This document shows positions 10,948 to 52,880 of a DNA stretch of 64,000 nucleotides, piece by piece; the first letter of the stretch is position 1; each line of letters opens with the position of its first letter. The DNA comes from Callorhinchus milii (Eukaryota). The translations under genes were made by a program, and so were the position numbers. The DNA is taken from contig NW_024704742.1 of NCBI RefSeq assembly GCF_018977255.1, positions 136,340,001 through 136,404,000 of the forward strand, given 5' to 3'. The notes under the pieces are model-generated. The model was not told the origin of the DNA. It searched no databases and was given only the letters and a program-made list of their open reading frames with translations.

Positions 10948-12167
<1,220 letters not shown>

Positions 12168-29111: not shown

Positions 29112-29414
29112 TAATAATAATAATCCTTGCATTTGATATAGCGCTTTTCACATCGGAGGACGTCCGAAAGCGCTTCATAGAACACTGTAAAGTGAATTGA
29201 CTGTATATTTGTGGGCGAACGCGGCAGCCAATTGCGCACAGCAATGTCCCACAAACAGTTGTAGATTGAAAATGACCAATTTATTATTGTTTTTGAGGGA
29301 TTATTATTAGGCTCTGTGTGGAGTAAGGAAACTTGCCCAAGGGTTCGCCCTCTGCCTGGAATTGAACTCCGGTCTCTTACTTGCAAAGCGAGTGCTCTAA
29401 CCGAGCTACAGGAC
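29112..29414 (-). mobile_element. Young SINE, short subfamily
   Basis: Near-identical to 36461-36783. Confidence 0.9.
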
Positions 29415-31721
29415 TTGCACGATGTTTATACAGCTAATGCAATTAATGGAAAGGTCCCTATAAGACAGGTTTGTGGAAATAAAAGTATCAGGTTGTGTGT
29501 ATGATCTGTTGCAAAGATAGAAAATGTAGCTTTAAAATCAGGTGTCAGATGACAAAAGAACTGCTACTAGAAAACTGGTAAAGCACACTTGGAGAAATGA
29601 CAGCAGCTCTAATTTAGGACGTAGATCAGAGCGGTTAGAGAGATTTAACTCAATTGTTTTGAGAATTTATTAATATTAATAATAATCCTTGCATGGATAT
29701 AGAACTTTATCACATCATCAAAGCATCTCAAAGAGCTGTAAAGTGGAGTGACTGTGTTTTGTGGGCAAAACACTCCAGCCATTTGCCATTTACAGATTTA
29801 CAGATTACATCCATTTACAGATCATCAGCCATGATCTTATTGAATGTCGGGGAAGGCTCGAGGGGCAGAATGGTCTACTCCTGCTCCTAATTCTTATGTT
29901 CAATGTCCCACAAACAGTCATGAAGTGAGTGCCCAATTTTATTTGGGGGATTATTGTACAGCACCCTGGGAGAAACTTCTTTTTTTCTTTTTAAATAATG
30001 CCTTGGGATCTTTAACGTCTGCCTGAATAGGCAATTGGTATGAGAAGTGAAATTGGTTTAACGTCTCATATAAAGGATGGCACCTCCGCCAATGCAACAA
30101 CCTCAGCACTGCATTGGAGTGTCAGCTTAGACCATGTGATTTCATAGCCGGATGTGGGGCTTGGACCCACAACCATCATACTCAGAGGCAAGAGTGCTAC
30201 CACTGCGCCTGGCTGACACATAGCTCAGGGATATGCATAGAGTAGAGCAGATACCCCACAGCACATGATGCCAGCGTCCATGTATTGAGAAGCATCCTCG
30301 GTATATTCCAAAGTCGGGTGGGTATTCCAAAGCACAGTTTAACACGTAATGGAGAACCTTTAGTAATACCAAATCTTGTCCCTATCAACTAGAACTGTAC
30401 CTGTTCTTTAGAAGTTTTGCCCACAAAATACAGTCAATCCACTATTCGATATATTCTGTGAAACGCTTTGAGACATCTCAAAGACATGATATAGCAATAT
30501 AGCTATAGCAAATGCAGAGATTATTATTATAAATAGACAAAGAGAACAATTTGTAGGTGAAATAAACAGACGACAACAACAAATTACATTTATATAATTA
30601 CTCCTGCTTATATAATTAATAATAATCCCTCCAAAACCAAAAACAATAATAAAATTGGTCATTTTCAATCTACGACTGTTTGTGGGACATTGCTGTGCGC
30701 AATTGGCTGCCGCGTTCGCCCACAAATATAGTCAATTCACTTTACAGTGTGTTCTATGAAGCGCTTTGGGACGTCCTCCCGACGTGAAAAGCGCTATATC
30801 AAATGCAAGGATTATTATTATTATTATTATATAGCGACTTTCACGTCAGGACATCTCAAGGCGCTGGACAAACAGTGATTTGGACCCACCCAGAGGTTGA
30901 GATCAGGGGGGCAAGAGGGGTGGGGGTAGGAGGGTGAGAAAAGGTGCGGTCTTGAGAAATGCCTTGAAGGGGGTAAGGGAGGAAACAAGGTGAGGATCCT
31001 CAGTCTTGTTGACATTGAACTGTAGAAAGTTAGCTCTCATGCAGGACTTCATGTCTGACAGATATTGTGGCCAGATAGCAGGGGTCCTGGAGTCGAGGGC
31101 GGAGGCAGAGTTAGATAGAGTTACGTATCATCCGCATACTTGGACCGCATGTTTCAGATGATGTTACAAAGTAGGAGCACGTAGATATTGAAGAGGAGAG
31201 GACCAACGCAGAGCCCTGAGATGGTGCGGCGGCTGGAGGAGAAGCCATTTGTGTAGACAAAGTGGAGACAGTGCGGAAATGTAGGATCTGAACCATTCAA
31301 GGACAGAACTGTGAAGGTTGAGGTGAGAGGTGGTGGTGGAGGACAGAATGGTCAACAGTGTCAAAGGCAGAAGAAAGGGCAAGGCTAATGAGGAGGCCGA
31401 GGGAGCCCTGATCGCAGATGGACAAAATGCCATTTGTCATTTTGACCAAGGCCATTTCTTGCTGTGGGCAGCACGGAAACCTGATTGGAGGATTCGTGAG
31501 GAACGTGGCGGAAGAGGAAGGAACCAAGCTGGGAAGCAACGACTCATTCCCGAACTTTGGAAAGGGAGGATGGAGATGGGGTGGGGACAAGACAAACAAG
31601 TTCAACTAAACACATCTTATAATCTCTTTAGTCTAGTTTTCAGTATTTTTTACAAAAATAAACTGGAATATACAAACATTTTAGACAAAATCATTAACAT
31701 TTCAGGGAGTCTGCTACTTAC

Positions 31722-31856
31722 GTGGGAATCTGGTTGAATTCCTCGATCACAAGGAACTCCATCCCTCGAACAAATTGCTTGGGTTTGGTGGAATTCTTTG
31801 TGTGTTCTGGTTTATCAGGATCCGGTTGCACTGCTTCAGTTTTCTGGGTTGCTGAG
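31722..31856 (-). CDS. SKA1: SKA1 coding exon 4 (135 nt); not shown in this frame in the ORF track
   Basis: Hand translation SATQKTEAVQPDPDKPEHTKNSTKPKQFVRGMEFLVIEEFNQIP(T) resembles human ...EMPFITCDEFNGVPS; CTCTAG acceptor, GTAAGT donor, phases consistent. Confidence 0.9.
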
Positions 31857-33114
31857 CTAGAGATACAAGCACAGGATGACAAATAGTAGATGGTGCAGAT
31901 GGCAATGTGTGGAGATGGAAGGGATGCTTATGATTTTGGACAAAATGAGATAACGAGATAACAAAAAGAATAACTTTGAACCCTAGATCTGATGCAGGTT
32001 TAAGAGTTGCACTGCTGATAAAACAGACCATTTAGCCACTTGTTAAAGAAAAAAATTAATGCAGCACTTTTACATTTTTACAAATATTTCAAGTGTTCTT
32101 TACAATAAGTATTGTGAAGTTTGGAGACTACTTTTCGGGAGGGATTTTTGCAAGAGCTAAGGACCTACAAACAAACAGCCTAAAGTGCTTAAATTGCTTA
32201 ATATGGAGGAGGATTGTTGGCAAGACACTGGTAGTAGACTCCCTTGTAGTTTCCAATTTAATCTTGGGATCCTTAATATTTATCTGAACAAGCATTGGTT
32301 TAACATCTAATGTTCAAGTGCTCTGAGACGTTACCCGTGTAGCATGATGGGTGCTATACATAAAGGCAAGTTGTTGTTGTAGTAAAGGACAGCATTTAAT
32401 ATTATTCAACATTTAAAGGACAGCAACTCCAACAATGCACTCACCAGTATCGTATTGGAATGTGGGGCTTTGAACTTTCTGAGCCATGAGCTCTATCTGA
32501 CCAATATTCCTACCTAATTCCAGATTTGAAAAAAATGCAGACCACTTGGTATTTTCGTAATTTAAGTAACTACATTAGTTTATAACTAATATAATAACTA
32601 TACTAGTTAAAAAGCCCAAATTAACCAAATGATCCCTTTAAGGGGTAACGTAAACCTTTTCCAAATAGAGTAGTGAAATCCTTTACAGGATCAAGCAACT
32701 CAGCCTTCGATAACTGACTGAGGCCAATGTCTCACTAACAGTATTATAAACCAGGAGCATAAAAAATAAACTGACTTCCGGTTTGCCGTTGAAATTTGTC
32801 AGATGCGCTGCCTTCAGAGGGCGCAGAAAGTTACGCGTGCATAGGAGGAAGTGACATCAACGACACTTTCTATGCATATCTTGCAGAAAATGATAACAGC
32901 GGCAACCTGGTGATCTGGAAGTCAGACCTTGGCTAGTCAGAACCAGAAGCATGGTGCTTGCTTTTGCACAGTAGATCTTCACTATATCGAAGGACGCTTA
33001 TAACTGAGACCTCCTGTATTTCCCGCTGAATAATATTTCTACTGGATTAGGAACAGTTATGACAAACACATTCACGTACTACACAATCATCTCTTGTATG
33101 AGATCTCGACATAC

Positions 33115-33209
33115 CTGGTTGGAGCAGCTTTCTTTGGTAGATGAGATGGGACATTTTCTACGAGGTGCTGTGCTGTTTTATGAGTTTCATCAACTGAATT
33201 TCTGAGATC
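33115..33209 (-). CDS. SKA1: SKA1 coding exon 3 (95 nt); not in the ORF track
   Basis: DLRNSVDETHKTAQHLVENVPSHLPKKAAPT(S) contains the conserved ENVPSHLP; TTCTAG acceptor, GTATGT donor. Confidence 0.92.
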
Positions 33210-34341
33210 CTAGAATAATCAAATCATTGAACGTCAAAAATTGGGCAAAACTAATGGACTGTCAACTGTTATAATAATAATTATTGCATTTGATATAACC
33301 CCTTATCAAGTCTTTGAGACATCTCAAAGCGCTTCACAGAATATATTGTAAAGTGAATTGACTGTATACTTTGTTGGAAATACACAACAGCCAATTGCGC
33401 ACAGTAGTGTCCTACAAACAGTTGTGGACTGAGTATCCAAATTATTTTTTTGATTAAGGGTTTATTATCCCCAGAAAAAGCAATCTGCTAATTGACTAAC
33501 AACCGGGTTCCTACTTACTGCTAGGTAAATGGAGAGTGTGGAGTAAGGAAACTTGCCTAAGGTTTTCCTGACAGGGAACCAAACTCGGAACCTCTCGCTT
33601 GTGAGTGCGCTGAACAATATGCTACAGGTCCACAAGTAGTAGTGCCATGGGATCTTTAAAATCCACCTGAAGCAAGGTTTAACATCTCATCCGGAGGTTA
33701 TCATCTCCAACAATGCAGCACATCCCAGCAATACTTGAGTGTTAGCCTAGATTATTTGAGTTTGAAGTCCTGATGTGGGGCGAACCCACAACCTTCTGAT
33801 TCAGAAGTGAAAGTGCTACCAACTGAGCCAGACTGATACCTAATTTATCTCAATCTGCCTCCCTTAAAGCAACATCTGGATACTATTTCTAGCCAATTAA
33901 AAGATGCTTTATTCTACTCTCCATTGGTCTTGAATCCAACACACCAAGCAAAAGTTTCACAGAAGCCCATTGTCCAAAAGCTGCGAGTGTGTTCAGATCT
34001 AAATTTAGTTATAATTATCACCTGAAATTTTGTCTCTTCATAACAGATACACTGTGAAAATGCACATTAAATTGGTTAGGAAATGTTGTAAATTTCCCGC
34101 CCCCCACCCCCACCTTTTGATTCTATAAACAACAACTTGCACTTATATAGCGCCCGTCCCCCACTCAGGGCAATGTTTAACAGTGGCGGAACCTGATTCC
34201 GAGCTGGAAGGAGGTCGGTGACCAGAGTGAAACATAAAATGAAAGATAAGACACTACAGTTCACAGATACAACATACAATAACCAGAAAAACGTAGGACA
34301 TTTTGGAGAAGTTCCAGTGAATGGAATATGAAGGATTTTAC

Positions 34342-34466
34342 CTTGATAACTTTCAGGTCAGTTTTCTGTCGCAGTATCTCTGCCTGAAATGTATCTAACA
34401 GATACCAGATGTCAGATAATTCTTGCTCAATCTTCTGCAGCACTTTTGTCTGAGAAGGATCATAAC
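34342..34466 (-). CDS. SKA1: SKA1 coding exon 2 (125 nt)
   Basis: (G)YDPSQTKVLQKIEQELSDIWYLLDTFQAEILRQKTDLKVIK, coiled-coil-like; TTAG acceptor, GTAAAA donor. Confidence 0.9.
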
Positions 34467-35029
34467 CTAATGACAGAAATGTTGGGATTGTGTATAAGGA
34501 AGGAGTCATCTTGCCTCAGTTCATAATACTGGTATCTTGGTCAATGTGGATTCAAACTCCATGTCATGAGCTCAAGTTCTAGGCTGACACTCCCAACAGT
34601 AGTGTGGGGGATCTGTTGTCAGAAGTTCAGTCTTTCAGATGAGATCCTGTCTGCCTCTTCAGGTGGATGTGAAAGATTCCATAACATTATTGGAAAAGAG
34701 AAAGGAATTTCCTCCAGAGTCCTGGTCAAAAATCCTAACCTAATGGTTGCTTGTGAAATTTTGTACACAAATACAGTAATTAATGAAGCGTTCTTTGAGA
34801 AGGAAAATGTACATTATGGCACCGTAATTACATAACAGTAATAACATAACAGTAATAATGAAAATGTTCCTTCTTACCATATTAGATAATCTCTGAAGCT
34901 GAAGAGCCCAAGTTTATTTTTAAAAACTAAAGGGATTAAGGGATATGGGGATAGGGCGGGTAAATGGAATTAGGTTACAATGTAAAGCATCACAAACAGG
35001 TCAATCTGCATTGTCCTACTGTTTATCAT

Positions 35030-35550
35030 AGGAACAGGAGTAGGCCATTCAGCCCATTGAGCCTGTTCCACCATTCTATAAGATCATGGCTGATCTGTAC
35101 CTCAAGTCCATTTACCTGTCCTTGTCTCACATCCCTTGATAATAATAATCGTTGTATTTGATATTGCGCATCATCACAACTTTGAGACTTCTCAAAGATA
35201 TACTGTAAAGTGAGTTGACTGTATATTTTGTGGGCGAAACGTGGCAGCCAATTGTGCACAGCAATTGATACCCTTATCTTACCCCACAAATATCTATCCA
35301 CCTCAGTCTCGAAAATGTGAATGGATCCAGCATCCACAGCCTTTTTGGTGGGGAGAGAGTTCCAAATTTCCACTGCACTTTGTGTGAAAATCTGCCTCCT
35401 GATTTCACTCCTAAATGGCCTAGCTCTAATTCTAAGATTAATCCCCCTTGTTCTGGATTCCCTCACCAGTGAAAAAGTTACTCTGTAGCTGCCCTATCGA
35501 ATCCCTTTATTATTTTAAAACCTCAATTTAGATCCACCCTCAACCTTCTA
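35030..35550 (-). mobile_element. CR1-clade LINE 3' fragment interrupted by a SINE tail (~35140-35268)
   Basis: SRTRG...FTQSAVEIWNSLP peptide and tail GGGCTGAATGGCCTACTCCTGTTCCTATG; a related fragment lies near 54975-55290. Confidence 0.85.
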
Positions 35551-36460
35551 AAAGGGATTGAAGCAGTAGAAGGGGGTGGAGGGGAAGGTCACATTGACTC
35601 TCAAAGGTACCGGATCAGCTTTGTGGTGCAGCTTTCTCAGATTCCACCTGTGGAGATGTTCCCTGTAACAGTCTCCTTAATTGGAGAACGCAGTCAGCGC
35701 AGTATGAAACAGTATGAGGCCGGACAAGCACAGAGAGAACACAATATTTAAAATCAATTAACTTTGCATAACGATCCAGCTCATAAAAAACTCCACAATT
35801 TAACTGGCTTAAGTCAACTTTAATATGGTATTCGACAAAGCAGCTCAGAAATGCTGCCACCCACAAGGTGGCAGCTTCAAAAGGAGCTGAAGGCTGGCTC
35901 AATAGCTTTCACAAACTGATTTGGGGCCAACTGGTTTGTCAAATAATAATAATAATCCTTGCATTTGCCTTGTCACATCATTGAGATATCTCAAAGCCCT
36001 CCACAGAATATATTGTAAAGTGAATTGATCGTATATTTTGTGATCAAAACACAGCAGTCAATTACACACAGCAGTGTCCCACAATCAGCCGTGGATTCTT
36101 TTTAAAAAAAGGGATTATTACCCCGCAAAGCTATCTGCTAATCAACTAACAACAGATAGCTACTTACTGTTAGGTAAACAGAGATGCGTGGAGGAAAGAA
36201 GCTTTCCTAAGGTTTCACTCTACCGGGAATCAAACCCAGGTCCTTTTGTTTGCGTGGCGAGTGCTCCACCAAATTACTACAGGACTCCAAAGCCTGGGAA
36301 GGGGGAGGGTGTAGGGCAATGGGGAATGACATACAGCTTCCCCTTGAAGCAGCAATACCTTTCGATAAATGAAACACACTTTCCAATCTGGGACTTACTC
36401 AGTCTGTCATTTTTCTGACAGTGTAAAAACGAAGGCCTGCCATTTCCCATGAGTATGCGT

Positions 36461-36783
36461 GGAGTCCTGTGGCTCAGTGGTTAGAGCACTCGCTTTACAA
36501 GCGAGATACCCGAGTTCAATTCCAGGCAGAGGGCGAAACCTTGGGCAAGTTTCCTTACTCCAAACAGAGCCTAATAATAATCCCTCCAAAAAACAAAACA
36601 ATAATAAATTGGTCATGTTCAATCCACGACTGTTTGTGGGACATTGCTGTGCGCAATTGGCTGCCGCGTTCGCCCACAAATATACAGTCAGTTCACTTTA
36701 CAGTCTATTCTGTGAAGCGCTTTGGGACGTCTAGAAGACGTGAAAAGCGCTATATCAAATGCAAGGATTATTATTATTATTAT
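36461..36783 (+). mobile_element. Young tRNA-derived SINE with partial Deu domain and (ATT)n tail, full-length short subfamily (reference copy)
   Basis: A box TGGCTCAGTGG, B box GAGTTCAATTCC, Deu-like GCTGTGCGCAATTGGCTGCCGCGTT, 3' AAGCGCTTT...AAAAGCGCT stem and ATT tail. Confidence 0.92.
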
Positions 36784-38080
36784 GCACTTGCCAATTTTCA
36801 CCTCCAAAACTCAATGGCAATTCTTTTCACAATAGTGAAAACACAAAAATGAGGACAAAAGATGTTTAACAGAGAGCCCTTGAAATGGCAATGAATCAAC
36901 TTGTTGTCTCCTGTGTGAGCTGCGATTTCTAAAGTTCATCAAAATGCCATCACATCTGCCATCTATTCAAATTCTCCTATTGTATTTGCAGACACAGATG
37001 TATTAAATAAACTAAAGGCCTTTTGTATCACATACTGGCTCAGTTTGCAACACTCTTGCCTCTGAATCAGAAGGTTTGTGATTCAAACCCAATGATGGAT
37101 TTTGATAAATAATAGATACGTGCATTTGAATAAATAATAAAGATCCTTGCACCTTATCACATAGCTGAGACATCTCAAAGCACTTCACAGAATATACTGT
37201 AAAGTGAATTGACTCTGCATCTTGGGGGAGAAACAGCTCAGCACAAAAAGTCAGATTGAGTATCGAAATAATATCTTTTTGGAGGAGAGATTACTACCCC
37301 AACAACCCAGTTCCTACTTACTGCTAAGTAAACAGAGGCATGTGGAGTAAGGAAATTTGCCTAAAGTTTTGCCCCAGGTACTCTCGCTTGCAAAGTGATG
37401 TCCTCCCGACGTGAAAGGCACTCCATAAATGTAATTTTGTTTTGTTGCTGTGAGCGTGCTAACCAATATGTTACAAGATTCTTGTGGATAACTAATTTTA
37501 TAGTTCAGGCTGGCTCTTCAGTGCAGTACTGAGGGATCATTACATTATCAGATGTGTGCTTTTCACCACATCAGGCTTCACTATCCTCCCATAGTGAAAA
37601 GGGCTGTATAACAACAACAACCTGCATTTATATAGCAACCCTCAGGGATTTTAGTGTCACAGAGCTCTTGACAGTGGGGGGGGAGCATGACACGATGTGG
37701 TGGGGGGAGGGCTGTAGGCACCGTCAAATAGGAAGATCTTCAGGAGCGACCTGAAGATGGGGAAGCAAGGGGAAAGGCAGAGGGATAGAAGAAGAGTGTT
37801 CCAGAGTTTCAGAAGTGTGGCTACCAATGGTGGAATGGAGGGCACGAGTGACTTTCAGGAGGCCAGAGACAGTCGAGTGGAGGCTGTGCGTAAGCAGGTC
37901 GGAGAGGTATGGAGGTGGCAGAGCATGAAGGGATTTGAAAATCAGTGTGAGGGTCTTGAAATTGATCCGTCCGGCGATAGGCTAGAACTTGTGTAATGGG
38001 AATACAGAGTTTAGTACAGGTGAGTATGCAGGCTGCAGAGTATAATTGTAAATAGTTTTTGTTCTTGTAGTTAAACTCAC

Positions 38081-38168
38081 CCATTTTCTTCAGTTGTAGG
38101 GACCTTTTAATCAAAGATATCTTGTTGTTCATGTGAACTGATAAATCCTGCAAATCCGTCGAGGTCAT
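38081..38168 (-). CDS. SKA1: SKA1 first coding exon (88 coding nt; exon probably starts at 38201)
   Basis: MTSTDLQDLSVHMNNKISLIKRSLQLKKM(G) resembles human MASSDLEQLCSHVNEKIGNIKKTLSLRNC; GTGAGT donor. The six exons sum to 762 nt, i.e. 253 aa plus stop. Confidence 0.93.
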
Positions 38169-40073
38169 CCTTAGCAAATCAGGACAGCTCTTCAACCAAA
38201 TCTAACAACATCAAATCAAATGGCTTAGTATGGGAATTTACCTCATTGGCGCATTCTGCTCTACAGTGATATACTTCTTAAGCATTTGTAAAGAGGCAAC
38301 TGTCCACCTCTCAGATAGTCTACAGCTCTGGCTAAAATCCATTGAGAACAAAGACTGGCCAAAAATAGTGCAATAAATAGAGGGTGAAAAACTGAATATT
38401 CTATGTCATAACACCCAAAAGTACGATCTAAACCTGCCTTTAATTATTGCACATGTGTACAATTGGCTGCCGAGTTTCGCCCACAAATATTCAGTCAATT
38501 CACTTTACAGCATATTCTGTGAAATGCTTTGGGACGTCTAGAAGACGTGAAAAGCGCTATATCAAATGCAAGGATTATTATTATTAAGAACATATTGCAT
38601 ATAATATAATAATAGTACTAACATTTAATATAGTGCCTTATCACTTTGGTGAGACATCTCAAAGCGCTTCACAGACTGGGCATTTGTGATCAAGATTATA
38701 ATTACAGTATTATACACACACATAATATAAACACACACACATATCTCTCCCTATATAATGTACATATAATATCTATACACTTTATTGTGATAATTAGTGT
38801 CCTAAAAACATGAAAGCATGGCCATTTGCGCTTCTTTCCGGATCACTGTTGTTGTTAGCGAGTTCCACCGTGCATTATACTCAGGAATCAGGTCAATAAG
38901 CCCCTTTCTTCGCAAACCATTGAGGGAATCAGGGAGTCAGTATACCAGGGATCTACTGTTCCATTCAAGCGAATGGCGTACTGATTGATGTCCACTACAA
39001 AAGCTGCAATGATGCGTTAGATGTGCAGGGTGAGATATATAGCTCCTTGGGCTCACAGAAACCTGGCTGTCCCAGTGACTCCACCCCCCTCATCAAAACC
39101 TCCCGCCTGGTCACACCTTACACCCCCGACTGCCCCCGTCTCCCAAATCTCCCTCGGTTCATTCCCCTATTCCTCCCGCTCCTTCATCTCCTTCAAGCAC
39201 TTCACCCATTACCAACTCCTGCTCTCTCGCTCTCTCTCTCCATCAAAATCTTCCTAGTCCGCACCGCACCGCCCCCACAAAACCTTCCTCTCAAACAGCC
39301 CATCTTTGTGTTACATTTCTCAGGAATAAATTGGGGTGATTTAAATTTAAGGTCATGTAGTACGACTTCAATGCCACAGGATGGCACAAGCATCCTATAT
39401 ATAATCACACCCACAGAGCAAGCGTTCCCAAAGGCACAGCACTTGCCCACGCAAGCGGCCAATATTTTGTGTGCAAAATTTTGTGTATTTTATTCCTATG
39501 CCCAGAAGTTCCATCACTCGAGAGTTTCACCTCCAAGTCGGAAAGTGGTGGGTTGAAGCCCACCCGCGCGCGCGGGCGGCGGCTTTGAGCTCACGGTCCA
39601 GGGCTGACGCTCCAGTGCCGTGTTAAGGTCAATAATAATCCCTCCCAAAACTATAATAAATTGGGTCATTTTCAATCCGCGGCTGTCTGCGGGGGCACCG
39701 CTGTGCGCCATCGGCTGCCGCGTCCGCCCACAAATATACAGTCAATTCACTTTACAGTGCGTTCTGCGAAGCGCTTCGCGCGCAGCGGTGTCCCCACAGA
39801 CAGTCGTGGATTGAAAATGACCCAATTTATTACAGGTTTTTTTTTGTGTGGGGGGGGGGGAGGGAGGGGAGGGCTCGTTATTTATTAATAACATTATTAT
39901 TGTTCGTTTGCTTTGAAGGGTTTAATTAATTAATTTGGAGTGTGGGGAGGGGGGGGGGGACCTGCCTGAGGTACCTCTTGGCTGTTTGCTCTCCTCTTGG
40001 GGACATGTGGGTGACTTTTACCTTCTAAAATCACTCAGTAACGCTGACCAAAGCCTCTCGGGCTTTTCCTTAC

Positions 40074-40140
40074 CTTTCTGACGCGAGGCCCCGGTCTCAG
40101 GTCCCGCTCGACTCTCGCAGCCGTTAACGGTCGTCCTCGC
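40074..40140 (-). other. SKA1: Putative SKA1 non-coding exon 1
   Basis: Strong minus-strand donor AAG|GTAAGG at 40074/40073 inside the CpG island, just downstream of CHR/E2F motifs. The 5' end is approximate. Confidence 0.65.
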
Positions 40141-40640
40141 TTCAAACATTTGAATCTTCCCGCCCAGTCGGGCTCGCGCCGCGGGGGGGGGGGGAGGGGG
40201 GCGGGGGGAACGACGACAGCCAATCAGCGGCCGCCGCGCGCAGAGGGCGTGACCCGAGCGAGTGAGGGGCTGGGACGAGGGAGAAATTATTTTTAACTCG
40301 TCTTGAAATTAACTTCAGGTCCGACCATTCGATTTGAAATGGACCTGAAAGATTTTTGTCCCCTCCAGAAGAGGGAAATGACTGACTTTGGGCGGCGTGA
40401 CGACGGCGGGGCGGCCCAGCTGCCATGGTGACGGGGCTTTCATCGCGTCCACGCAGCCGGTTCTCGCGATAACTCGCGGTTGCCATGGCGAGGCGACCTG
40501 GTTGCCATGGAGAGGACGCGCTCCCTGAACACCCCCCCTCCCCACACACACACACACACCACATCGCCTCCCCCCGCCCCACTCCTCTTCGGTCTCTGGC
40601 GTTGGCTCCAGGGCTCGGATTAGAGCAAGAGGGGCAGAAA
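40080..40640. promoter_or_regulatory. CpG-island bidirectional promoter shared by SKA1 and CFAP53
   Basis: CHR hexamers TTCAAA 40141-40146 and TTTGAA 40149-40154; E2F-like TTCCCGCC 40157-40164; AGCCAATCAG (CCAAT 40220-40224); GC boxes; X-boxes at 40419-40432, 40479-40492 and 40501-40514; TCTCGCGATA 40462-40471. Confidence 0.85.
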
Positions 40641-41766
40641 GTGAGGGAGTGAGGAGTTGAATGAGTGAGAGTTTGAGGGATTGAGTGAGTGAGAGTTTGA
40701 GGGAGTGAGAGTTTGAGGGATTGAGTGAGTGAGAGTTTGAGGAGTGAGTGAGTGAGAGTTTGAGGGAGTGAGTGAGAGAATTTGAGGGAGTGAGTGAATG
40801 TTTGATGGAGTGAGCGAGTGAGAGTTTGAGGGAGTGAGTGAGAGTTGAGAGAGTGAGTGAATGAGAGTTTGAGGGAGTGAGTGAGAGTTTGAGGGAGCGA
40901 GTGAGTAAGAGTTTGAGGGAGTGAGTGAGGGAAAGTTTGAGGGAGTGAGTGAGAGAGTTTGAGGGAGTGAGTGAGATAATTTGAGGGAGTGAGTGAGTGT
41001 TTGAGGGAGTGAGTGAGTGAGAGTTTGAGGGAGGGAGAGAGTTAGAGTTTGAGGGAGGGAGTGAGTGAGAGTTTGAGGGAGGGAGTGAGTGAGAGTTTGA
41101 GCGAGTGAGTGAGTGAGAGTTTGAAGGACTGACTGAGTGAGAGTTTGAGGGAGTGAGAGTTTGAGGGATTGAGTGAGTGAGAGTTTGAGGAGTGAGTGAG
41201 TGAGAGTTTGAGTGAGTGAGAGAATTTGAGGGAGTGAGTGAATGTTTGATGGAGTGAGCGAGTGAGAGTTTGAGGGAGTGAGTGAGAGTTGAGAGAGTGA
41301 GTGAATGAGAGTTTGAGGGAGTGAGTGAGAGTTTGAGGGAGCGAGTGAGTAAGAGTTTGAGGGAGTGAGTGAGGGAAAGTTTGAGGGAGTGAGTGAGAGA
41401 GTTTGAGGGAGTGAGTGAGATAATTTGAGGGAGTGAGTGAGTGTTTGAGGGAGTGAGTGAGTGAGAGTTTGAGGGAGGGAGAGAGTGAGAGTTTGAGGGA
41501 GGGAGTGAGTGAGAGTTTGAGGGAGGGAGTGAGTGAGAGTTTGAGGGAGGGAGTGAGTGAGAGTTGGAGAGAGGAAGTGAGTGAGAGTTTGAGGGAGGGA
41601 GTGAGAGTTTGAGGGAGGGAGTGAGTGAGAGTTTGAGGGAGGGAGTGAGAGTTTGAGGGAGTGAGTGAGAGTTTGAGGGAGTGAGTGAGAGTTTGAGGGA
41701 GTGAGTGAGAATTTGAGGGAGTGAGTGAGAGTTTGAGGGAGTGAGTGAGAGTTTGAGGGAGGGAGT
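40641..41766. repeat. Minisatellite, ~20-24 bp unit GAGGGAGTGAGT(GAGT)GAGAGTTT, with an internal ~444-bp duplication
   Basis: Directly visible; variant units recur at a 444-bp offset (for example AATGTTTGATGG at 40797 and 41241). Confidence 0.97.
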
Positions 41767-41857
41767 GCTGCCTTTATGTTTTGACTCAATCGCGACACAG
41801 TTGTTATTGTTTTACCTCAGATCTTTAAAAGCACGAGGAAAAAGGAGGAAGAGGATC

Positions 41858-41929
41858 ATGGCGGCTACTTGTCGGGAGGGGCAGAGATGCAGGGAGGTTA
41901 AAGGGCCGAAGCCATGTTCTGTGGCTGTG
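41858..41929 (+). CDS. CFAP53: CFAP53 (CCDC11) first coding exon (72 coding nt; exon probably starts at 41821)
   Basis: MAATCREGQRCREVKGPKPCSVAV contains the conserved REVKGP; good Kozak ATCATGG; GTTAGT donor; acceptor TTTTACCTCAG at 41820. Confidence 0.88.
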
Positions 41930-42276
41930 GTTAGTATTGTTGGATTGCCCGTGTCCTCTCCTGCACCGGGCTCTATATCACCCCCATCTGCGCCCATCTC
42001 CATCGCTCAGGGGATACAGTTCAAGATCCTGGTCCTCACCTTCAGTGGCCTCTTTCTTTCTAGTTTATCTTTATTTAACTTTACCTGTAGAAAGACAAGA
42101 GGGAGCACGGAATGGGAAATGGGCCATTTCAACCCAATAAGCTTGCGACTTGAGATATCAACTGTGTTGTTGTTGATCATTTTAGACACAGGTGAGAAAT
42201 GGGCTGATTCTCCCTCTGCCTGTTCAGGTGGACGTTGAAGATCCCCTGGCACTGTTCAAAAAGAAACGGGAGTTTA

Positions 42277-42603
42277 TAATAATAATAATAATAATAATCC
42301 TTGCATTTGATATAGCGCTTTTCATGTCTTCTCGACGTCTCAAAGCACTTCACATAATAGACTGTAAAGTGAATTGACCGTATATTTGTGGGCGAACGCG
42401 GCAGCCAATTGCGCACAGCAATGTCCCACAAACAGTCGTGGATTGAAAATGTCCAATTTATTATTGTTTTGTTTTGGAGGGATTATTATTAGGCTCTGTG
42501 TGGAGTAAGGAAACTTGCCCAAGGTTTCACCCTCTGCCTGGAATTGAACCCCAGGTGTCTCGCTTGCAAGGCAAGTGCTCTAACCACTGAGCTACAGGAC
42601 TCC
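42277..42603 (-). mobile_element. Young SINE, short subfamily
   Basis: Near-identical to 36461-36783. Confidence 0.92.
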
Positions 42604-42936
42604 AAACAATTTCCCCTTGGGTCCTGGCCAACAATCTCTCAAATAAAATTAGTCATTTGTTTCATGGTTGTTTGTGTTAATCTGCAGTGCGCAATTGTGC
42701 TGCTGCATTCATCTACAAATGTGTGAATTGATTTCATACTAAATCCCATGAAGCAATTTGAGACGTCCTTCCGACGTGATAAGGATTGATACCAAATGCA
42801 AGGTTTTTTTTATTTATTATTATTCTGTGTTAAGGCAGAAAATGATGTGCTCGCGTTGGGGATGTAGGGAGGGGGGATTGCTATTGTACCTATTCTGAAA
42901 ATCCCACCTTTGTGAATTTCGTCCTTTTGTTGTTAG

Positions 42937-43163
42937 AAAGCAAAAGCTATGCATAAAGGCATGCAAGCGAAAATTGAAAAACAAAAAAAGCTAGAGATTG
43001 CTTTGGAAGAGGCCTTAGCCTTCGAGAAGTACCAGAGAGATGGTCTGACCAGGAATAAGCTGGAGAGAATAGAGGAGCAAAAGAGAATGAGATTCAAGAT
43101 CAACCAAAACTTCAAAGGAATAATGCTGGAGTATAAAGCCAGCATAGATGACAGGAGAGACAG
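42937..43163 (+). CDS. CFAP53: CFAP53 coding exon 2 (227 nt)
   Basis: KAKAMHKGMQAKIEKQKKLE...YKASIDDRRD(R); TGTTAG acceptor, GTAAAT donor. Confidence 0.9.
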
Positions 43164-43831
43164 GTAAATGGGAGTACAGTGTTTATTTCAATTAACTCCT
43201 AGATAAAATTGGCCATTCACTTCCTGGCTTGTGGGACACTGCTGTGTGAAGAATGGCTGCTGCGTTCACCTGCAAATAAAATCCCGTGAAGCACTTCAAG
43301 AAGGCTATATCACATGCACGGATTATTGTAAGCAAAAAGTTGATTGTGGATTCACAAGAGCAAGATATAAAGTGTGTGCATTGGTCTGGATGAAGAAGAC
43401 CCTTTGGCCCATCTGATCTCATTCTTTCCAAATATCTATCCTTCCGTCAACATGATTTTTAAATGAGTCCCATTGTTCTGGCCTCAACCTGTCCTGGCAA
43501 CCTGTTCCAGTTGTTAATTATCCTCTGAGTAAAGAAAAACTTGCTGATGTGTGTCATAAAATTTCCTTTACAACTCTAAGACTCTGCCCTATTGAGTACT
43601 GTTGTGGCTCTATTTGAAAAGAGAAGGGAGTTTTCCCTGGTTTCCTAGCCAACAATCCCCAAATAAAGTTGGTCATTCTCTTCATGGCTATTTGTGAGAC
43701 TTTGCTGTGTGCAAATTGGTTGTCATGTTTGCCTAAAAGTACAAAGTAAAATCCCATGATATGAAAGGTTCTGTATTAAATGCAATAATCATTATTATGA
43801 TGATTAATGTTCTTTGTTTCATTTCTCCAAG

Positions 43832-44005
43832 GCTGCGAGAGCTCCTGGAAACCGAAGAGGAGGCATTGCTGAAAGAATTTGTTGGTCTTGGTGATACTGT
43901 ATTCGACCGGCAAGAAAAAATGAGGGAAAGAGCGAAATTCCTTCGGGATAAAAACGAGAAGGAAAGGCAGCAACTGGTGGCTGATAAACGTGATCAGCAG
44001 TTTAG
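43832..44005 (+). CDS. CFAP53: CFAP53 coding exon 3 (174 nt)
   Basis: LRELLETEEEALLKE...KMRERAKFLRDKNEKERQQLVADKRDQQF(R), matching human LRELLALEE...KNEKERQDFVAEKLDQQFR. Confidence 0.95.
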
Positions 44006-44551
44006 GTACCAGTTGATGAAACACACAATACAGGTTTTAGGGTGACTCCAAACAGAATTAAAGGGGAGTTCAAAGAAAAAAAAATCCTTACCACAGACGG
44101 AGAGAGGGTTGAGATTAACTGGCATAAACTGTTGTTGAGGCGAAGTGCTTAAAATCTTTTCTAAGGCGAATTTGACATATGTAGTGTAGTGGTTAGCATG
44201 CTCGCTTCGCAAGTGAGAGGCCCCAGGTTCGATTCCCAGATGTGGAGAAACCTTAGGTAAGTTACATTGCTTCACATGCCTGTATACCTAGCAGTAAGTA
44301 GGAACCTGGTTGTTAGTTGATTGACGGATCGCTTTCTGGGAGTAATAATCCCTTCAAATTAATGATAATAATTTGGACACGGCGGTTTGTGGTACATTGC
44401 TGTACGCAATTGGCTGCGTGTTTCACCCACACAATATACAGTCAGTTAACAGTATATTCTGGAGAATATTAGGAGGTTAAATGGGTCGAAAAGTCTTCTT
44501 CATCCAAACTTCTCATGATCTGTGTCTTTTGTGCCTTGTTGTTGTTTCTTG

Positions 44552-45143
44552 TTCATGCCTTCATCACCTCCAGGCTCGACTATGCAAACGCTCTGCTTGT
44601 CGGCCTTCCCAACTCCTCCCTCCACAGGCTGCAGATAATCCAGAACTCTGCAGCCCGTGTCCTCTCCCGCACCAAACTCCGTGACCCCATCTCCCCCATT
44701 CTCGTCTGACTCCACTGACTCCCTATCCTTCAGAGGATCCAGTTCAAGATCCTGGTCCTCAAATACAAAGCCCTCCATGGCCTCGCCCCACCCTACCTCT
44801 GCGACCTCCTAACCCCCTACCAACCCGCCCGTTCCCTCCGCTCAGCCGGCTCCGGCCTGCTCCACGTCCCCTAACCCACCCGCCCCACTATTGGCGGGAG
44901 AGCCTTCAGCCACTCTGCCCCCAACCTCTGGAATTCCATCCCCCAGTCACTCCACCTCGCCCCCTCCTTAGCCTCCTTCAAGTCCTGCCTCAAGCCCCTC
45001 CGCTTCGACCATTGGCCACCCCCCTTCCCCTCCCCTCCCCCCCCAACCCCAGCTCGGGTCTGAAATGCTGTACTCTGTCCAGCGCCTTGGGACCTCCTCC
45101 CGACGTGAAAGGCGCTATACAAATGTAATCTTGTTGTTGTTGT
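44552..45143 (+). mobile_element. L2 LINE 3' fragment ending about 10 nt before CFAP53 exon 4
   Basis: VHAFITSRLDYANALLVGLP peptide plus L2 tail. Other L2 fragments lie near 5460-5920, 23230-23805, 28255-28550, 30828-31470, 46430-46740, 50755-51100, 52080-52440 and 63320-63560. Confidence 0.9.
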
Positions 45144-45154
45144 TTTGGTGCTAG

Positions 45155-45458
45155 GGAGCAGAGCGAGGAACTGCGCAAGATGATGTTTCATAAGCACCAG
45201 CTGGAGGTCAACAAAGACAGGCTGGTGCAGCTGGAGATGAAGAAGGAGCTTGAAAGGAAGAAGGAGGAAGAAGAGGATCTCTTTGCTGAGCTGTGGAAAA
45301 AGGACCAGCAAGCGAAAGAGGAACGTCTGGCAAAGGAGATACAGGAGGAAAAGACTCGAAACCTGGAACTGCTCGCTGTTCAGCAAAGCCAGATGGTAGA
45401 AGCCAATGCCAAACGTATGGAAGCGAGGCGCTTGATACAAGAGGAGGCACAGTTAATG
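45155..45458 (+). CDS. CFAP53: CFAP53 coding exon 4 (304 nt)
   Basis: EQSEELRKMMFHKHQ...LFAELWKKDQQAKEER...IQEEAQLM; CTAG acceptor, GTAAGA donor. Confidence 0.95.
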
Positions 45459-46785
45459 GTAAGAGTGTCCAACTGACAGCTGGTGGGGGTTGGGGGAGGG
45501 TGGGGGTTGGGAGAGGGCGGGGGGTTCTTTAGCTTGCTTTTGATTTGTAGACTCTAGGAAAATAACTAAGAATCGTTTTATTTCATGTCAGGAGGACGGA
45601 CGTCTCAAACCGCTTCACAGAAATCACTAAAATAATTATAATAATAATCCTTTCATTTGATTTAACAACAAACAATAACAAAGTATGAAGCGCTTTTCAC
45701 GTCAGAAGAACATCCCTTATCATGTCGATGAGATGTCTCAAAGTGATATTACTGTAAAATGTAACTACTTTGTAGTTGTAGGCAAACGCGGTAGCCAATT
45801 TTATTTACAGGAACGTCCCACAAAAAGCCATGAAGCGAATGATAAAATTTATTTTGGGATAATGTTGGCCAGGATACCGGAGAAACTCATTTCTCTTTTG
45901 GAGCAGAGGGCTCTTATTTTTTTTCACATCTCATCTGAAGGATGGAACCTCTGACAATCTAGCACATTGTACATTGTGGGGTCCCGTAGTGCAGTGGTCA
46001 GCGAGCATGCCTCAAAAGCAAGAGGAACCAGATTTGATTCCCAAGGTTTCGCCAAGTTTCCATATTCCATACATCGCTTTACTTATCAGTAAGAAGGAAT
46101 CCAGCTGGCGGATTGCTTTCCAGAGTTAAAAATCCCTCCAAAAAACAATTTGGTCACTCAATCCATGACTGCTTGTGGGACACTGTTGTGCGCAATTGGT
46201 TGCTGCATTTCGCCCACAAAATGCAGTCAATCCACTTTACAATATATTGTGTGAAACAACGTGATCAGGCTCTATATCAGACGCAAGGAATATTTATTTA
46301 TTTTATTGGATTGCCAGCCTAATCTGTGACTTCAAAGTCCTGACATGAGGATTGCGCTTGCTTTCAGTATGTAGAATTTGTGAAACATACATAGATTGAA
46401 TTGTGACTGAGCATCCAAAGCTCTCTTTTGCTCTGGAGCTCCGGAAGCTCTGATCTGCTCCATGTCCCCCACCCAGCCCACCCCACCATCAGCGGTTGGG
46501 CCTTCAGCCTTTTTGCCTCCAACTTTTTGAACTGCATGCCATAGTCCCTTCACCTCGCTTGGTTTCTTCAAGGCACGTCTCAAAACCTCCTCTTCAACTG
46601 CGCCTCTGGTCACCCACTTACCCCTACCCTCCCTGCTCTCCTGATCACAATCTGCAGCTCAGGTCCAAATCTCTGACTGTCCAACGCCTTGGGACGTCCT
46701 CCTTACGTGAAATGGGCTTTGCAAATGTAATTTGTTATTGGTGAGAATAAAAGATTTGCTAATTGGTAATGTGGACATGTCACAG

Positions 46786-47004
46786 AAAGAGTTGGAGCGT
46801 CAGAAGAAGCTGGAGGATGAGCAGGATGAGATCAAGAAGGCCCAGAAACAGCTGGAAACCCGCAGCATGCTGCAGAAGTCCATCCAGATGAAGAATAAGC
46901 GTCTGGCAGAGCAGCAGAAGGAGGAGGAGGCCTTGGACACCAAGATCAATGAGCAGATGCTGAAGGAGTACCATGACGATGCTGAGGAGCAGAAGCAAAG
47001 AAAG
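46786..47004 (+). CDS. CFAP53: CFAP53 coding exon 5 (219 nt)
   Basis: KELERQKKLEDEQDEIKKAQKQLETRSMLQKSIQ...DAEEQKQRK; CACAG acceptor, GTAATG donor. Confidence 0.92.
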
Positions 47005-47989
47005 GTAATGAGAGGCCATGAGGGGTGGGGGGGGAGGGCGGGTCCAGGCAGGTCAGCAACATGCTTCAACAAGGCTGAAAGAGAGTCCTGTAACGTAGTA
47101 GTTAGAGGAAGGTGGTTAGAGCACTCGTCTCACAAGAGAGAGGACCCGGATTTGATTCCCGGGTCGGGTAAAACCTTAGGCAAGTTTCCTGACTCCACAC
47201 GTTTCTGTTTATCTAGCAGTAAGTAGGAACCTGGTTGTTAGTCGATTGGCAGATCGCTTTCTGGGGATAATAATCCTTTTTTTAAAAAAAATGTCACTCA
47301 ATCCACCACTGTTTGTGGACACTGCTGTGCGCAATTGGATGAGAGATTGAAAGCGAGCAAGGGAGAGAAAATGGGAGAGAGAAAAGAGAACATAAGCAAA
47401 CAACAGTGAGAGAGTGTAAAAAGGAGAGAAAGAATGTGAGCAAGAGGGAGAAAGGGAGTGAAGGACAGAAAGAGAAAGCAAGCAATACCCCCATACCCCT
47501 TTATTCCTCCCAGACCTGTCTACTGTATTTGTCAGCCTGGCTCAGCTGGTAGATCTCTCACCTTTAATAGAATCATGGAATATTGCAGCACAGAAGGAGG
47601 CCATTCGGCCCTTTGTGCCTGTGCAGGCTCTTTGGAAGAGCCACCCAAACAGTCCCACTCCCTCGCTCTTACACTCGCTCCTTGCAATTTTTTTCTTTTT
47701 AAGTACCTATCCAATTCCCTTTTGAAAATTGTTATTGAATCACTTAGAAAAATATGGGTTAATAAAGGACAACTAACATGGATCTTCAACCGTGCCTTCA
47801 GCTCCCCTCTCGACTCTCTACCCCCTCCTCGCTCCCTTCCTTCCCTCCCCTCACCCTGACCATTTCCCCAATGCTCGGGTCCCGACCCAACTGTCCAGCA
47901 CCTTGGGACGTCCTCCCGATGTGAAAGGCGCACTATAAATCTTGTTGTTGTTGTTAAAAGTCAAATCGTATCTAACAAACCTGATATAC

Positions 47990-49280
47990 AGGCACAGAAA
48001 CAGCCCTGTTCAAAGTGACAAATGCCATTCTGTCCATCTGCAACCAGGGCTCCCTCTGACTCCTCGTCCTCCTTGACCTCTGCTGCCTTCAACACCATTG
48101 ATCACTTTATCCTCATCCATTGCCTCTCCTCTCACCTCAACGGCTCTGTCCTTGACTGGTTCAGATCATACCTCTCACATCGCCTCCACTTCATCTCCAC
48201 AAACGGTTTCTCCTCTACCCCCCGCACCGTCTCATGCGGCGTTCCTCAAGGCTCTGTCCTTGGTCCCCTCCTCTTCAATATCCATATGCTCCCTCTTGGT
48301 GACATCATCCACAGACATGAGGTCAACTTCCATTTGTATGCGGATGACACCCAACTCTACCTCTCTGTCTCCACTCTTAACTCCAGGACCACTGCTGTGC
48401 TGACAGAATGTCTGTCAGACATCAAGTCCTGGATGAGAGCGAACTTTCTTCAGTTGAACGTCAGCAAGACCGAGGCTCTCCTGATTGGCTCCTGTAAGCG
48501 CCTCCTCACCTCAGGCGCTGACAGCATCACCATCCATGGTTGCGCACTTCACCTCGCTAAGCCAGTCCGGAACCTTGGCATCTTATTTGACCCTCAACTA
48601 TCCTTTGTATCCTACATCCGTGCCCCGACCCGCTCTGCCTTTCACCACCTCCATCCACAACATTGCTTGGCTCCGCCACTGTCTCACATCATAGGCTGCC
48701 GAAATCCTCATACACGCATTCATATATTGAGGTTTGACTATGCAAACTCCTTGCTTGTTGGCCTCCCCAACTTCTCCCTCCATAGGCTGCAGATCTTCCA
48801 GGAATCTGCAGCCCGTGTCCTCTCCCGCACCAGGTTCCATGACCCTATTACCCCCTTCCTCACCTGACTCCACTGGCTTCCCATCACGCAGAGAATACTT
48901 CAAGATAACGGTCCTAACCTTCAAAGCCCTCCATGGCCTCACTCCCCCCTACCTCTGTGACCCTTACCATCCTGCCCGCATCCTCCGCTCAGCGGGCTCC
49001 GGCCTGCTTCACGTCCCCCGCCTCGCCTGCCGCACCATTAGCAGGCGAGCTTTCTGCCACTCTGTCCCCATCCTCTGGAACTCAATCCCACAGTCCCTCC
49101 GCCTTGCCCCCTCCCTTTCCTCCTTCATTCCCATCTCAAGACCCTTCTCTTCGACCGTGCTTTCGATCATCCTGCTTCCCACCTACCCTCGAGCCTCCCA
49201 CAGTCACGACCCCCACCTCAGGTCCAAAACTGTCCAGCATCTTGGGACGTCCTCCCAATGTGAAAGATGCTATACAAATG
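47990..49280 (+). mobile_element. 5'-truncated L2-clade LINE with degenerate reverse transcriptase C-terminus and (TTG)n tail, in a CFAP53 intron
   Basis: ORF 48022-48867 contains GVPQGSVLGPLLF and YADDTQLY, then frameshifts; tail CTTGGGACGTCCTCCC...GTGAAAG..GCTATACAAATGTAATTTTGTTGTTG. Confidence 0.93.
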
Positions 49281-49384
49281 TAATTTTGTTGTTGTTATTG
49301 ATATAGTTTTTTAATGAATCCATATAAATTAATGAATCCATATAAACTACATCAAGTGCAGTTGTTATCAAACACAAAAGGTAA

Positions 49385-50210
49385 AATGGGCAGAAACGTA
49401 GCAGATGAAGTTTAATGTGGAGAAATGCAAAGTGTTGCATTTTGGGAGGAAGAATGAGGAGAGACAATATACGCTGATGGTACAATCTTAAAGGGAGTGA
49501 AGGAACAGAGAGACCTGGGGGTCATATAGTAAATCTTTGGAGGTGGCCGGACAGGGAGATAAAGCTGTTAAAAAAGCATACGGCTTTATAAATAGGGTCA
49601 TAGAATACAAAAGTCAGGAAGTTATGATGAACCTTTATAAAACACTGGTTAGGTCTCAGCGAGAGACTGTGTTCAGTTCTGGTCCCCTTCATTTTAGGTA
49701 TAGATGTCAAGGCAATGAAGAAGGTGCAAAGAAGATTTACCAGGATGGTATCAGAAATGAGGGACTTTAGTTATGAAGAGAGGCGAGAGACGCTAGGATT
49801 ATTCTCCTTGGAGCAGAGAAGGTTAAGAGGAGACTTAATAGAAGTTTTCTAAATTATGAGGGGATTCGATAGGGTGAACAAGGAGAAACTATTTCCACTG
49901 ACAGGAGGGTTGGTAACCAGAGGACAACAATTTAAAATAGTTGTTAAAAGAAACAGAGGGGAGGTGAGGAGAAATGTTTTCACACAGCGAGTTGTTCAGA
50001 TCTGGAATGCATTGCCTGAAAGGCTGGTGGAAGCCGATTCGATAACAACATTTAAGAGAGAAATAGATAAATATTTGGGGAGGACAAGTTTGCAGGGCTA
50101 TGGGGAGAGAGCGGGGGAGTGGGATTGATTTGGATAGCTCTTTTCAAAGAGCCGGCACAGACATGATGGGCCGAATGGCCTCCTTCTGTGCTGTATAATT
50201 CTATGATTTT
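49385..50210 (+). mobile_element. CR1-clade LINE 3' fragment
   Basis: ATGAAGTTTAATGTGGAGAAATGCAAAGTGTTGCATTTTGG (MKFNVEKCKVLHFG), LYKTLVR and FTQRVVQIWNALP peptides, and the tail GATGGGCCGAATGGCCTCCTTCTGTGCTG. Confidence 0.9.
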
Positions 50211-50323
50211 ATGATAAGATGGTGGAATAGCCTAGCCTGGCTCAGCATTTCTACGTTTCTATAAGGTAACAGTTTGATTTTACTTATTAACGTTTGAGTT
50301 TTGCTTATGGAATCTGTTTGCAG

Positions 50324-50540
50324 TTTGAGCTTCAGAGAGAACAGCATGCATATCGGCAATACCTGGCCCGGCAGGTGGAGGAACAGAAACTCCAAGAGAA
50401 GGAGATGGATCAGCTGATTGAGGCTGACCTCCAGAAGGCCCTAGCCAAACGCCTTGAAGAACTGAAGATGAAGAAAGGGGCTCGAGACCGGCTCCTAAAA
50501 GAGGTCATGGCGGCCCGCAAGCTTCAAGTCCAACAGAAAC
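50324..50540 (+). CDS. CFAP53: CFAP53 coding exon 6 (217 nt)
   Basis: FELQREQHAYRQYLARQVEEQKLQEKEMDQLIE...EVMAARKLQVQQK; TGCAG acceptor, GTAAGA donor. Confidence 0.95.
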
Positions 50541-51129
50541 GTAAGAGTGTCTTAGAATTACATCTTTTGCTCTTGCCTGTGCCTAATACTCTCCGGAATA
50601 GAGGCAGCAACTTGCATTTATATAGTGCACCTCACACAGGGTAGAGCCTCAGAGCACTTGACAGTAGTGAGGATAGTGCATATACAGTAATAATAATAAT
50701 CCTTGCATTTGATATAGCGTCTTATCACATCTTTGAGAAGTCTCAAAGCACTTCACAGATGGAACTCCATCCCCCAGTGCCTTCGCCTTGCTTCCTCCCT
50801 TTCCTCCTTCAAGGCCGGTCTCAAAACCTTTCTCTTTGACCGTGCCTTCAGTCCCCTCTCGACTCTCTTCCCCCTCCTCGCTCCCTCCCTTCCCTCCCTC
50901 ACCCTGACCATTTCCCCCTCCTTGCTCCCTCCCTTCCCCTCACCCTGACCATTTCCCCCCTCCTCGCTCCCTCCCTTCCCTCCCCTCACCCTGACCATTT
51001 CCCCCCTGCTCGGGTCATGACCCAACTGTGCAGCGCCTTGGGACGTCCTCCTGACGTGAAAGGCGCTTTATAAATGGAATCTTGTTGTTGTTGTTGTTGT
51101 TGATGTCACATACATCCTGTAAAATAAAA

Positions 51130-51628
51130 ACCTAAATGGGGTAGAGGACCAAAGGGACCGAGGGGTACACATACACAATTCACTATAAGGAGCAAAGCAG
51201 GTTAATAAGGCCATTAAAAAAAGCGAACCAGGCATTCCAGTTCATTTCTAGAGGAATATAAATGAAAAGTAGGGAAGTTATGGTAAACTTCTATAGAACC
51301 TGGGTTAGACCAGACTTAGAATACCGTGTGCAGTTCTGGTCCCCACATTATAGAAGGGATGTAGAGGCACTGAAGAGGGTGCAAAGGAGATTCACAAGGA
51401 TGATCCCAGAACTGAGAGGCTATACCTATCAGGAAAGGCTGAACATGCTTGGACTCTTTTGTCTTGAAAGGCGGAGGGTAAGAGGTGACCTGATAGAGGT
51501 CTTAAAACGATGAAAGGTTTTGATAGGGTAGACATAAGGAAGATGATTCCAATTGTGGGGGAGATCAAAACCAGGGGCCATCAAAGTAAAATAGTCACAA
51601 ATAGATCAAATAGGGAAGTTAGAAGAAG
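51130..51628 (+). mobile_element. CR1-clade LINE fragment
   Basis: VRPDLEYRVQFWSPHYRRDVEALKRVQRRFTRMIP peptide. Confidence 0.9.
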
Positions 51629-52777: not shown

Positions 52778-52880
52778 TGGAAGAAAATGCAAAGAAACAG
52801 GAGGAATTGGCGGAGGAGCAGGACAGGATCGCAAAGGTCGTCAAAGAAATGAAAGAATTAAACAATGAAAGGGAGCAAAG
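52778..52880 (+). CDS. CFAP53: CFAP53 coding exon 7 (103 nt)
   Basis: (L)EENAKKQEELAEEQDRIAKVVKEMKELNNEREQ(R); TTTTAG acceptor, GTACGG donor. Confidence 0.92.

Follow-up and report, generated by a model that had tools for sequence, protein, structure and literature searches.

Gene content and orientation at the SKA1/CFAP53 locus

The window, which here means the whole analysed stretch of 64,000 nucleotides from the genome of Callorhinchus milii, contains two genes that diverge from a CpG island between them. The genes and the centre of the island are delimited as follows:

27080–38201, minus strand: coding exons of SKA1, from Pfam, C. milii protein mapping and contigs (38201–38081 with the ATG at 38168; about 34467–34342; 33209–33117; 31849–31721; 28121–27948; 27232–27080)
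40281–40388, unstranded: AT-rich linker within the island, G + C content 0.38, with CTTGAA at 40302 and TTTGAA at 40333 (plus strand), 31 nt apart
41821–54145, plus strand: CFAP53, with the acceptor AG at 41819–41820, the ATG at 41858 and eight coding exons

The minus-strand gene matched the SKA1 family of Pfam with an E-value of 8e-23, and C. milii SKA1 proteins mapped to it at 96–100%. The CFAP53 protein of C. milii (516 amino acids) mapped in eight exons from the ATG at 41858 to position 54142, and CFAP53 chains in the PDB matched the plus-strand gene with E-values of 4e-12 to 3e-6; the ATG exon and the following exon, each searched alone, gave no significant PDB match. The identities given to both genes in the earlier note were thus borne out by Pfam, PDB and C. 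milii protein mapping. Two database names at odds with these identities were encountered: the CFAP53 homologue of Pristis is misnamed "182 kDa tankyrase-1-binding protein," and one PDB CFAP53 sequence (entry group of 7rro chain 3) also bears the mislabel MBD1. When metagenomes were scanned with an SKA1 alignment of 13 sequences, 38 pattern matches and no relatives were obtained.

SKA1 and CFAP53 are arranged head-to-head with no gene between them and an ATG-to-ATG distance of 3,690 bp. Between 39300 and 42000 no Rfam family reached its gathering score, and the single match (E-value 0.1, 21.7 bits where the gathering score is 50) was rejected. Positions 40080–40640 form a CpG island of 561 bp with a G + C content of 0.63 and an observed/expected CpG ratio of 0.98, which consists of two GC-rich halves split by the 108-bp linker. 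Elsewhere in the window, a MAPK4-like kinase exon, which reads as MAPK4 by synteny, lies downstream of SKA1 (10948–11500, minus strand). An X-box-like sequence, GTAGCCATTGCGAC, occurs at 61214–61227 in a CpG-rich stretch between repeats near 60–62 kb and possibly marks another promoter downstream of CFAP53.

Motifs of the island and the transcription starts

The SKA1-facing half of the island comprises the following features:

40074 to at least 40180, minus strand: SKA1 first exon, with the donor AAG/GTAAGG and the intron from 40073, from a contig and a RefSeq isoform
40121–40130, unstranded: palindromic MYB-type pair CCGTTAACGG in SKA1 exon 1, containing two of the five TAACGG in the window
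40141–40154: inverted CHR pair TTCAAA-CA-TTTGAA in SKA1 exon 1, with TTTGAA at 40141–40146 (minus strand) and 40149–40154 (plus strand)
40157–40165, minus strand: E2F-like/CDE-like GC element, with TTCCCGC at 40157–40163
40182–40226, unstranded: G-rich tract with a GC box at 40199–40204 and one NF-Y box, AGCCAATCA, at 40218–40226

Contigs from 4 of 12 sequencing runs, guessed to be RNA and of unknown tissues, were compared with positions 38000–40648, and most of the resulting rows were SINE copies. A contig of run X2 covers 40074–40180 and departs from the window sequence exactly at the donor, continuing for 47 further letters. In runs X1 and X5, contigs are identical to the ATG exon of SKA1 (38079–38201) and extend 20 letters past 38201; the joint between the two exons is absent among the contig matches listed. 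RefSeq isoform X2 (XP_042196600.1) has its initial ATG at 40149, midway through the CHR pair, and joins this first exon to the one at 34467. The contig and the isoform together place the CHR pair and the E2F/CDE-like element inside SKA1 exon 1. The pair lies 26–39 nt from 40180, the furthest contig end, which cannot map a transcription start; in this promoter class a CHR is expected no more than 200 bp from the start. The ATG at the centre of the pair also opens an upstream open reading frame (40149–40074 and 38201–38179, minus strand), which terminates 10 nt short of the SKA1 start in transcripts with exon 2; skipping of exon 2, as in the RefSeq isoform, puts it in frame with exon 3.

Motif frequencies were assessed on dinucleotide shuffles of 40080–40640. 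Two CHRs at most 20 nt apart occurred in 6 of 5,000 shuffles, and the inverted pair at 40141–40154 is one of only two such pairs in the window; single CHR hexamers are abundant in this genome, at least four being present in 9 of 114 real 561-bp windows. Read in the SKA1 sense, the sequence is GGCGGG-AAGA-TTCAAA-TG-TTTGAA, so that a GC-rich, CDE-like GGCGGG is located 4 nt 5' of a CHR in its inverse form, TTCAAA, which is the spacing of the optional CDE. By themselves, the E2F-like site (2,272 of 5,000 shuffles) and the CCAAT sequence (3,081 of 5,000) were unexceptional, and an extended NF-Y site was found in 398 of 5,000. The combination of at least two CHRs, an E2F site and a CCAAT box was reached by 21 of 5,000. 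The two inverted CHR hexamers, the adjacent E2F-like site and the NF-Y CCAAT box listed in the earlier note were therefore all found in place, the CHR pair by motif search and shuffling, and the other two as sites that taken alone are not above chance. The MYB-type pair was not above chance on the loose pattern YAACKG (848 of 5,000 shuffles).

The linker qualifies the division into a mitotic and a ciliary half that had been described for the island. The two motif sets do lie at opposite ends, but the division is not clean, as the CHR-type hexamers at 40302 and 40333, both of them validated CHR forms, stand in the middle, 80–120 bp from X-box 1. Judged from their sequence and position, they could couple CFAP53 to MuvB. 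An imperfect inverted repeat (40313–40350) encloses the third TTTGAA; its folding significance is marginal (18 of 500 shuffles).

On the CFAP53-facing side, the following features were identified:

40419–40432, unstranded: X-box 1, GCTGCCATGGTGAC, matching the full RFX consensus RYYRYY-N1-3-RRNRAC
40460–40473, minus strand in its fit to RYYRYY-N2-RRNRAC: fourth consensus X-box, GTTCTCGCGATAAC, overlapping TCTCGCGA and absent from the earlier note
40479–40514, unstranded: X-boxes 2 and 3 (GTTGCCATGGCGAG and GTTGCCATGGAGAG), each with a perfect half-site and a degenerate half
about 40515–40640, plus strand: predicted non-coding first exon of CFAP53, with the donor AAA/GTGAGG (GT at 40641)
40650–41767, plus strand: GA/GT-rich tandem repeat of 1.1 kb with a 24-nt unit, which takes up the predicted first intron of CFAP53

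The three X-box cores GYTGCCATGG previously reported at 40419, 40479 and 40501 were confirmed and are the only three in the 64-kb window. At least three sites within three mismatches of an X-box palindrome occurred in none of 5,000 shuffles of 40080–40640. With the published palindrome GTTGCCATGGCAAC, which like the full consensus was taken from the available part of PMC4168999, none of 3,000 shuffles reached two sites within three mismatches, and three of the five such sites in the window are the named X-boxes. X-boxes 2 and 3 deviate from it by two and three mismatches, respectively, and retain a perfect half-site. The full consensus is permissive (at least one site in 955 of 3,000 shuffles) and fitted one of the three named X-boxes plus the site at 40460. 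As X-boxes 2 and 3 form a tandem pair, a 16-nt direct repeat 22 nt apart, their independence is doubtful. The near-palindrome at 40460–40473 combines the consensus X-box with the sole TCTCGCGA of the window, such a site occurring in 155 of 5,000 shuffles; it resembles the BANP/M4 motif. A forkhead site of the form RYMAAYA was not found in 40080–40640, the nearest being located at 39983 in SKA1 intron 1. This weakens the label of a FOXJ1-RFX promoter, but not the likely behavior, since Foxj1 can be stabilized through Rfx2.

The GCCATGG in each X-box core would form an upstream ATG if transcribed, from which we infer that CFAP53 starts after approximately 40510, with a short non-coding exon ending at 40640. 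The donor AAA/GTGAGG, with its GT at 40641, is the first after the X-boxes with seven of nine consensus matches. Use of the X-box ATGs as CFAP53 start codons was considered and rejected, as they are out of frame or run into a stop before this donor; all 14 homologues listed begin at or just before an N-terminus of the 41858 type. The tandem repeat begins 9 nt past the predicted donor and contains 47 GTGAGT look-alikes of a 5' splice site on the CFAP53 sense strand, and its removal would bring X-box 3 to approximately 226 nt from the start codon. Expansion of the repeat within the 5' UTR may have given rise to the first intron, which may also present many alternative donors.

Alternatively, CFAP53 could start by 41821 or within the repeat, in which case the X-box cluster would be a nearby enhancer and the island would promote SKA1 alone. 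The distance between the two starts would then be about 1.6 kb, instead of about 350 bp for a start after the X-boxes; start sites less than 1 kb apart are the usual criterion for a bidirectional promoter. No contig of the four runs covered 40403–40648, as such a start would predict, but this is uninformative on a CFAP53 first exon, since 40527–40648 had been passed over as repeat and the runs are from unspecified tissues; the low cover of 40314–40402 (runs X1 and X5) is uninterpretable, and the 41821 exon and the tandem repeat lay outside the compared stretch. X-box 3 is located 1,344 bp from the ATG, which is within the permissive window described for X-boxes, yet outside the robust one (PMC5838959, available part), an X-box being expected about 500 bp or less from the start of its target. 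The sequence before the ATG speaks against a start there: the acceptor AG is preceded by a pyrimidine tract and lies 37 nt before the ATG, with a matching donor at 40641, and only about 50 unique bases separate the repeat from the acceptor, or about 90 in all up to the ATG. Three CpG, no consensus X-box and no forkhead site are found in the 93 bp that precede the ATG. A separate CFAP53 start therefore appears quite unlikely.

Regulation and gene order of the orthologues

Published data on orthologues, taken from the accessible parts of the sources cited, agree with the assignment of the two motif sets. Human SKA1 has a conserved TTTGAA at +59 (score 0.999), analogous in position to the CHR pair of C. 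milii, and CGGCGG at +49 (PMC4176359, Table S3) and is listed as a DREAM-bound CHR gene with a G2/M peak (PMC4176359). Mouse Ccdc11, the CFAP53 orthologue, is a direct, RFX2-bound target that is reduced by 4.4–4.7 log2 units in Rfx2-null testis (PMC4498915). The motifs, together with human SKA1 and mouse Ccdc11, thus support the earlier proposal, in which the SKA1 end carries a MuvB-type module and the CFAP53 end an RFX-type one. The human data, like the frog data given below, stem from loci without a shared promoter and bear on the promoter of C. milii only indirectly.

One reading of the island is that both genes are induced jointly in multiciliated precursors or spermatocytes by the E2F4/5-Multicilin programme, by MYB on the palindrome of 40121 and by way of the CHRs in the linker. 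Sites of the E2F-like, MYB and RFX types do occur within approximately 400 bp, with CHR-type hexamers near X-box 1, and in the frog E2f4 and Rfx2 co-bind 271 promoters of multiciliated cells (10.1101/085571). According to the same source, however, binding by E2f4 or Myb, whether or not Rfx2 is present, mostly leaves a promoter uninduced, the best predictor of induction in multiciliated cells being Foxj1 together with Rfx2. In X. laevis expressing Multicilin, CCDC11 rose 28-fold at 9 h (padj 1.5e-11), whereas SKA1 showed an upward trend of 1.1-, 1.5-, and 1.7-fold at 3, 6, and 9 h with padj values of 1, 0.98, and 0.56 (PMC5245798). Human CCDC11 (CFAP53) was scored DREAM 0000 (PMC4176359, Table S3). 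The co-induction through Multicilin that had been suggested for the two genes was hence not seen in the X. laevis orthologues, a different species in which the promoters are not shared. Given that the frog promoters are unshared, that SKA1 trends upward there and that the linker of C. milii holds CHRs, coupling could exist in this species, although we regard it as improbable. X. laevis MAPK4, which is also located next to SKA1, is a core gene of multiciliated cells and was induced 22-fold by Multicilin (PMC5245798).

Neither human nor X. laevis has the two genes in close head-to-head order, while each gene shows its own type of regulation. The human starts diverge at a distance of 108.5 kb (47,792,865, minus; 47,901,391, plus), an interval that contains MBD1 and CXXC1. 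On scaffold 143831 of X. laevis, which represents one scaffold of an older assembly and one homeologue, SKA1 (180225–194657, plus) and CCDC11 (711889–730648, minus) are tail-to-tail and separated by 517 kb, and CCDC11 faces CTIF (PMC5245798). In the lamprey, mapk4 and cfap53 are found beside myo5 (PMC6372264), and the region is rearranged in birds (PMC5327406, PMC5327424). The neighborhood of SKA1 and CFAP53 itself is old. Among four sharks and rays, the two genes have consecutive RefSeq numbers in Pristis and close ones in Cetorhinus, but numbers far apart in Carcharodon and Heterodontus (two of four close), which is a weak hint of adjacency and silent on orientation. No description of a shared SKA1/CFAP53 promoter was found in the literature outside subscription journals; the locus appears to be undescribed, and the promoter design is already known.

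Promoter organization and known systems

The explanation that we favor, with a probability of roughly 0.65, is an ordinary head-to-head CpG-island promoter composed of two largely independent core promoters, a MuvB/DREAM side and an RFX side, approximately 350 bp apart and with the AT-rich linker between them. Leftward, basal activity would come from NF-Y and the GC box, and MuvB would be recruited by the CDE-like/CHR cluster of the first SKA1 exon, leading to DREAM repression in G0/G1 and activation by B-MYB/FOXM1 in G2/M, so that dividing cells would produce SKA1. In the rightward direction, three or four X-boxes occupied by RFX dimers would drive CFAP53 from just downstream of about 40510 in cells building sperm tails or motile cilia, with splicing of a short non-coding exon across the repeat to 41821. 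If each module acts on its adjacent start, the two outputs would track the state of the cell independently and no dedicated switch would be needed. Some shared basal drive is likely, since NF-Y and SP motifs act bidirectionally (PMC10327147). The missing forkhead site, the mid-linker CHRs and the upward SKA1 trend in the frog, significant at none of the three times, speak against this explanation.

SKA1 and CFAP53 serve largely exclusive cell states. This, together with the sharp polarization of the motif sets across the linker, would also fit an active switch in which MuvB on the left and RFX on the right compete for occupancy, one side being off when the other is on. Exclusive expression can, however, be explained by the cell-state patterns of the factors themselves without competition, and the two genes are separated in human and X. 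laevis. CHRs near head-to-head starts have moreover been described without co-expression, only one partner being a late cell cycle gene in all cases observed by 2014 (PMC4176359, available part), and this published one-sided behavior removes the need for a switch. Active competition therefore seems very doubtful. What stands of the single bidirectional promoter that had been proposed is the pair of divergent genes with one CpG island; joint switching or co-induction as a requirement does not. An output that "must switch" is not required where two core promoters can be used in different cells, for which the CHR pairs are a precedent (PMC4176359).

Under a broader and in our view unlikely scenario, the shared island would be the ancestral state of jawed vertebrates and at the same time a coupled hand-over element, which mammals and frogs would have lost independently by insertion and rearrangement. 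The RFX-driven expression of CFAP53 would then be gated by MuvB bound to the CHRs of the linker, and by MYB at the palindrome. If true, one 450-bp sequence would pass its output from a kinetochore to an axoneme gene as cells move from division to the multiciliation or spermatogenic programme. Only such coupling in an ancestral arrangement would give the locus a larger significance.

With two largely independent core promoters, the island would represent a natural example of a polarized head-to-head promoter, which is a known design and not a new kind of switch. The gene model is corrected by a probable, previously unseen first exon of CFAP53. The island would further be a convenient and compact dual reporter for how MuvB and RFX each act in one direction only, a matter left open in the 2014 CHR paper.

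Like the CDE/CHR promoter of human SKA1, the C. milii gene has a CHR downstream of the start in exon 1 and a CCAAT box upstream, and it shares with CDE/CHR promoters the GC-rich CDE-like hexamer 4 nt 5' of the CHR. It differs from them in that the CHR beside the CDE-like element is of the inverse form, as in Plk4 and Ube2c, and doubled as an inverted pair, and by two more CHR-type hexamers upstream. Compared by the text description of the CHR head-to-head pairs (PMC4176359, Supplementary Figure S5), only one partner is expected to be cell cycle-regulated here too, but the other carries an RFX cluster and belongs to the motile-cilia genes. As in the RFX promoters of HEATR2, Dync2li1, and mouse Ccdc11, one well-matched X-box is accompanied by degenerate ones near the predicted start; in contrast to RFX motile-cilia promoters, no RYMAAYA is nearby and the 1.1-kb repeat stands between the cluster and the ATG exon. 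With vertebrate bidirectional CpG-island promoters the locus has in common the divergent genes, the CpG island, NF-Y and GC boxes (PMC10327147, available part), and, on either side, a nearby downstream 5' splice site, predicted in the case of CFAP53, whereas its two partners belong to different programmes and not to one pathway.
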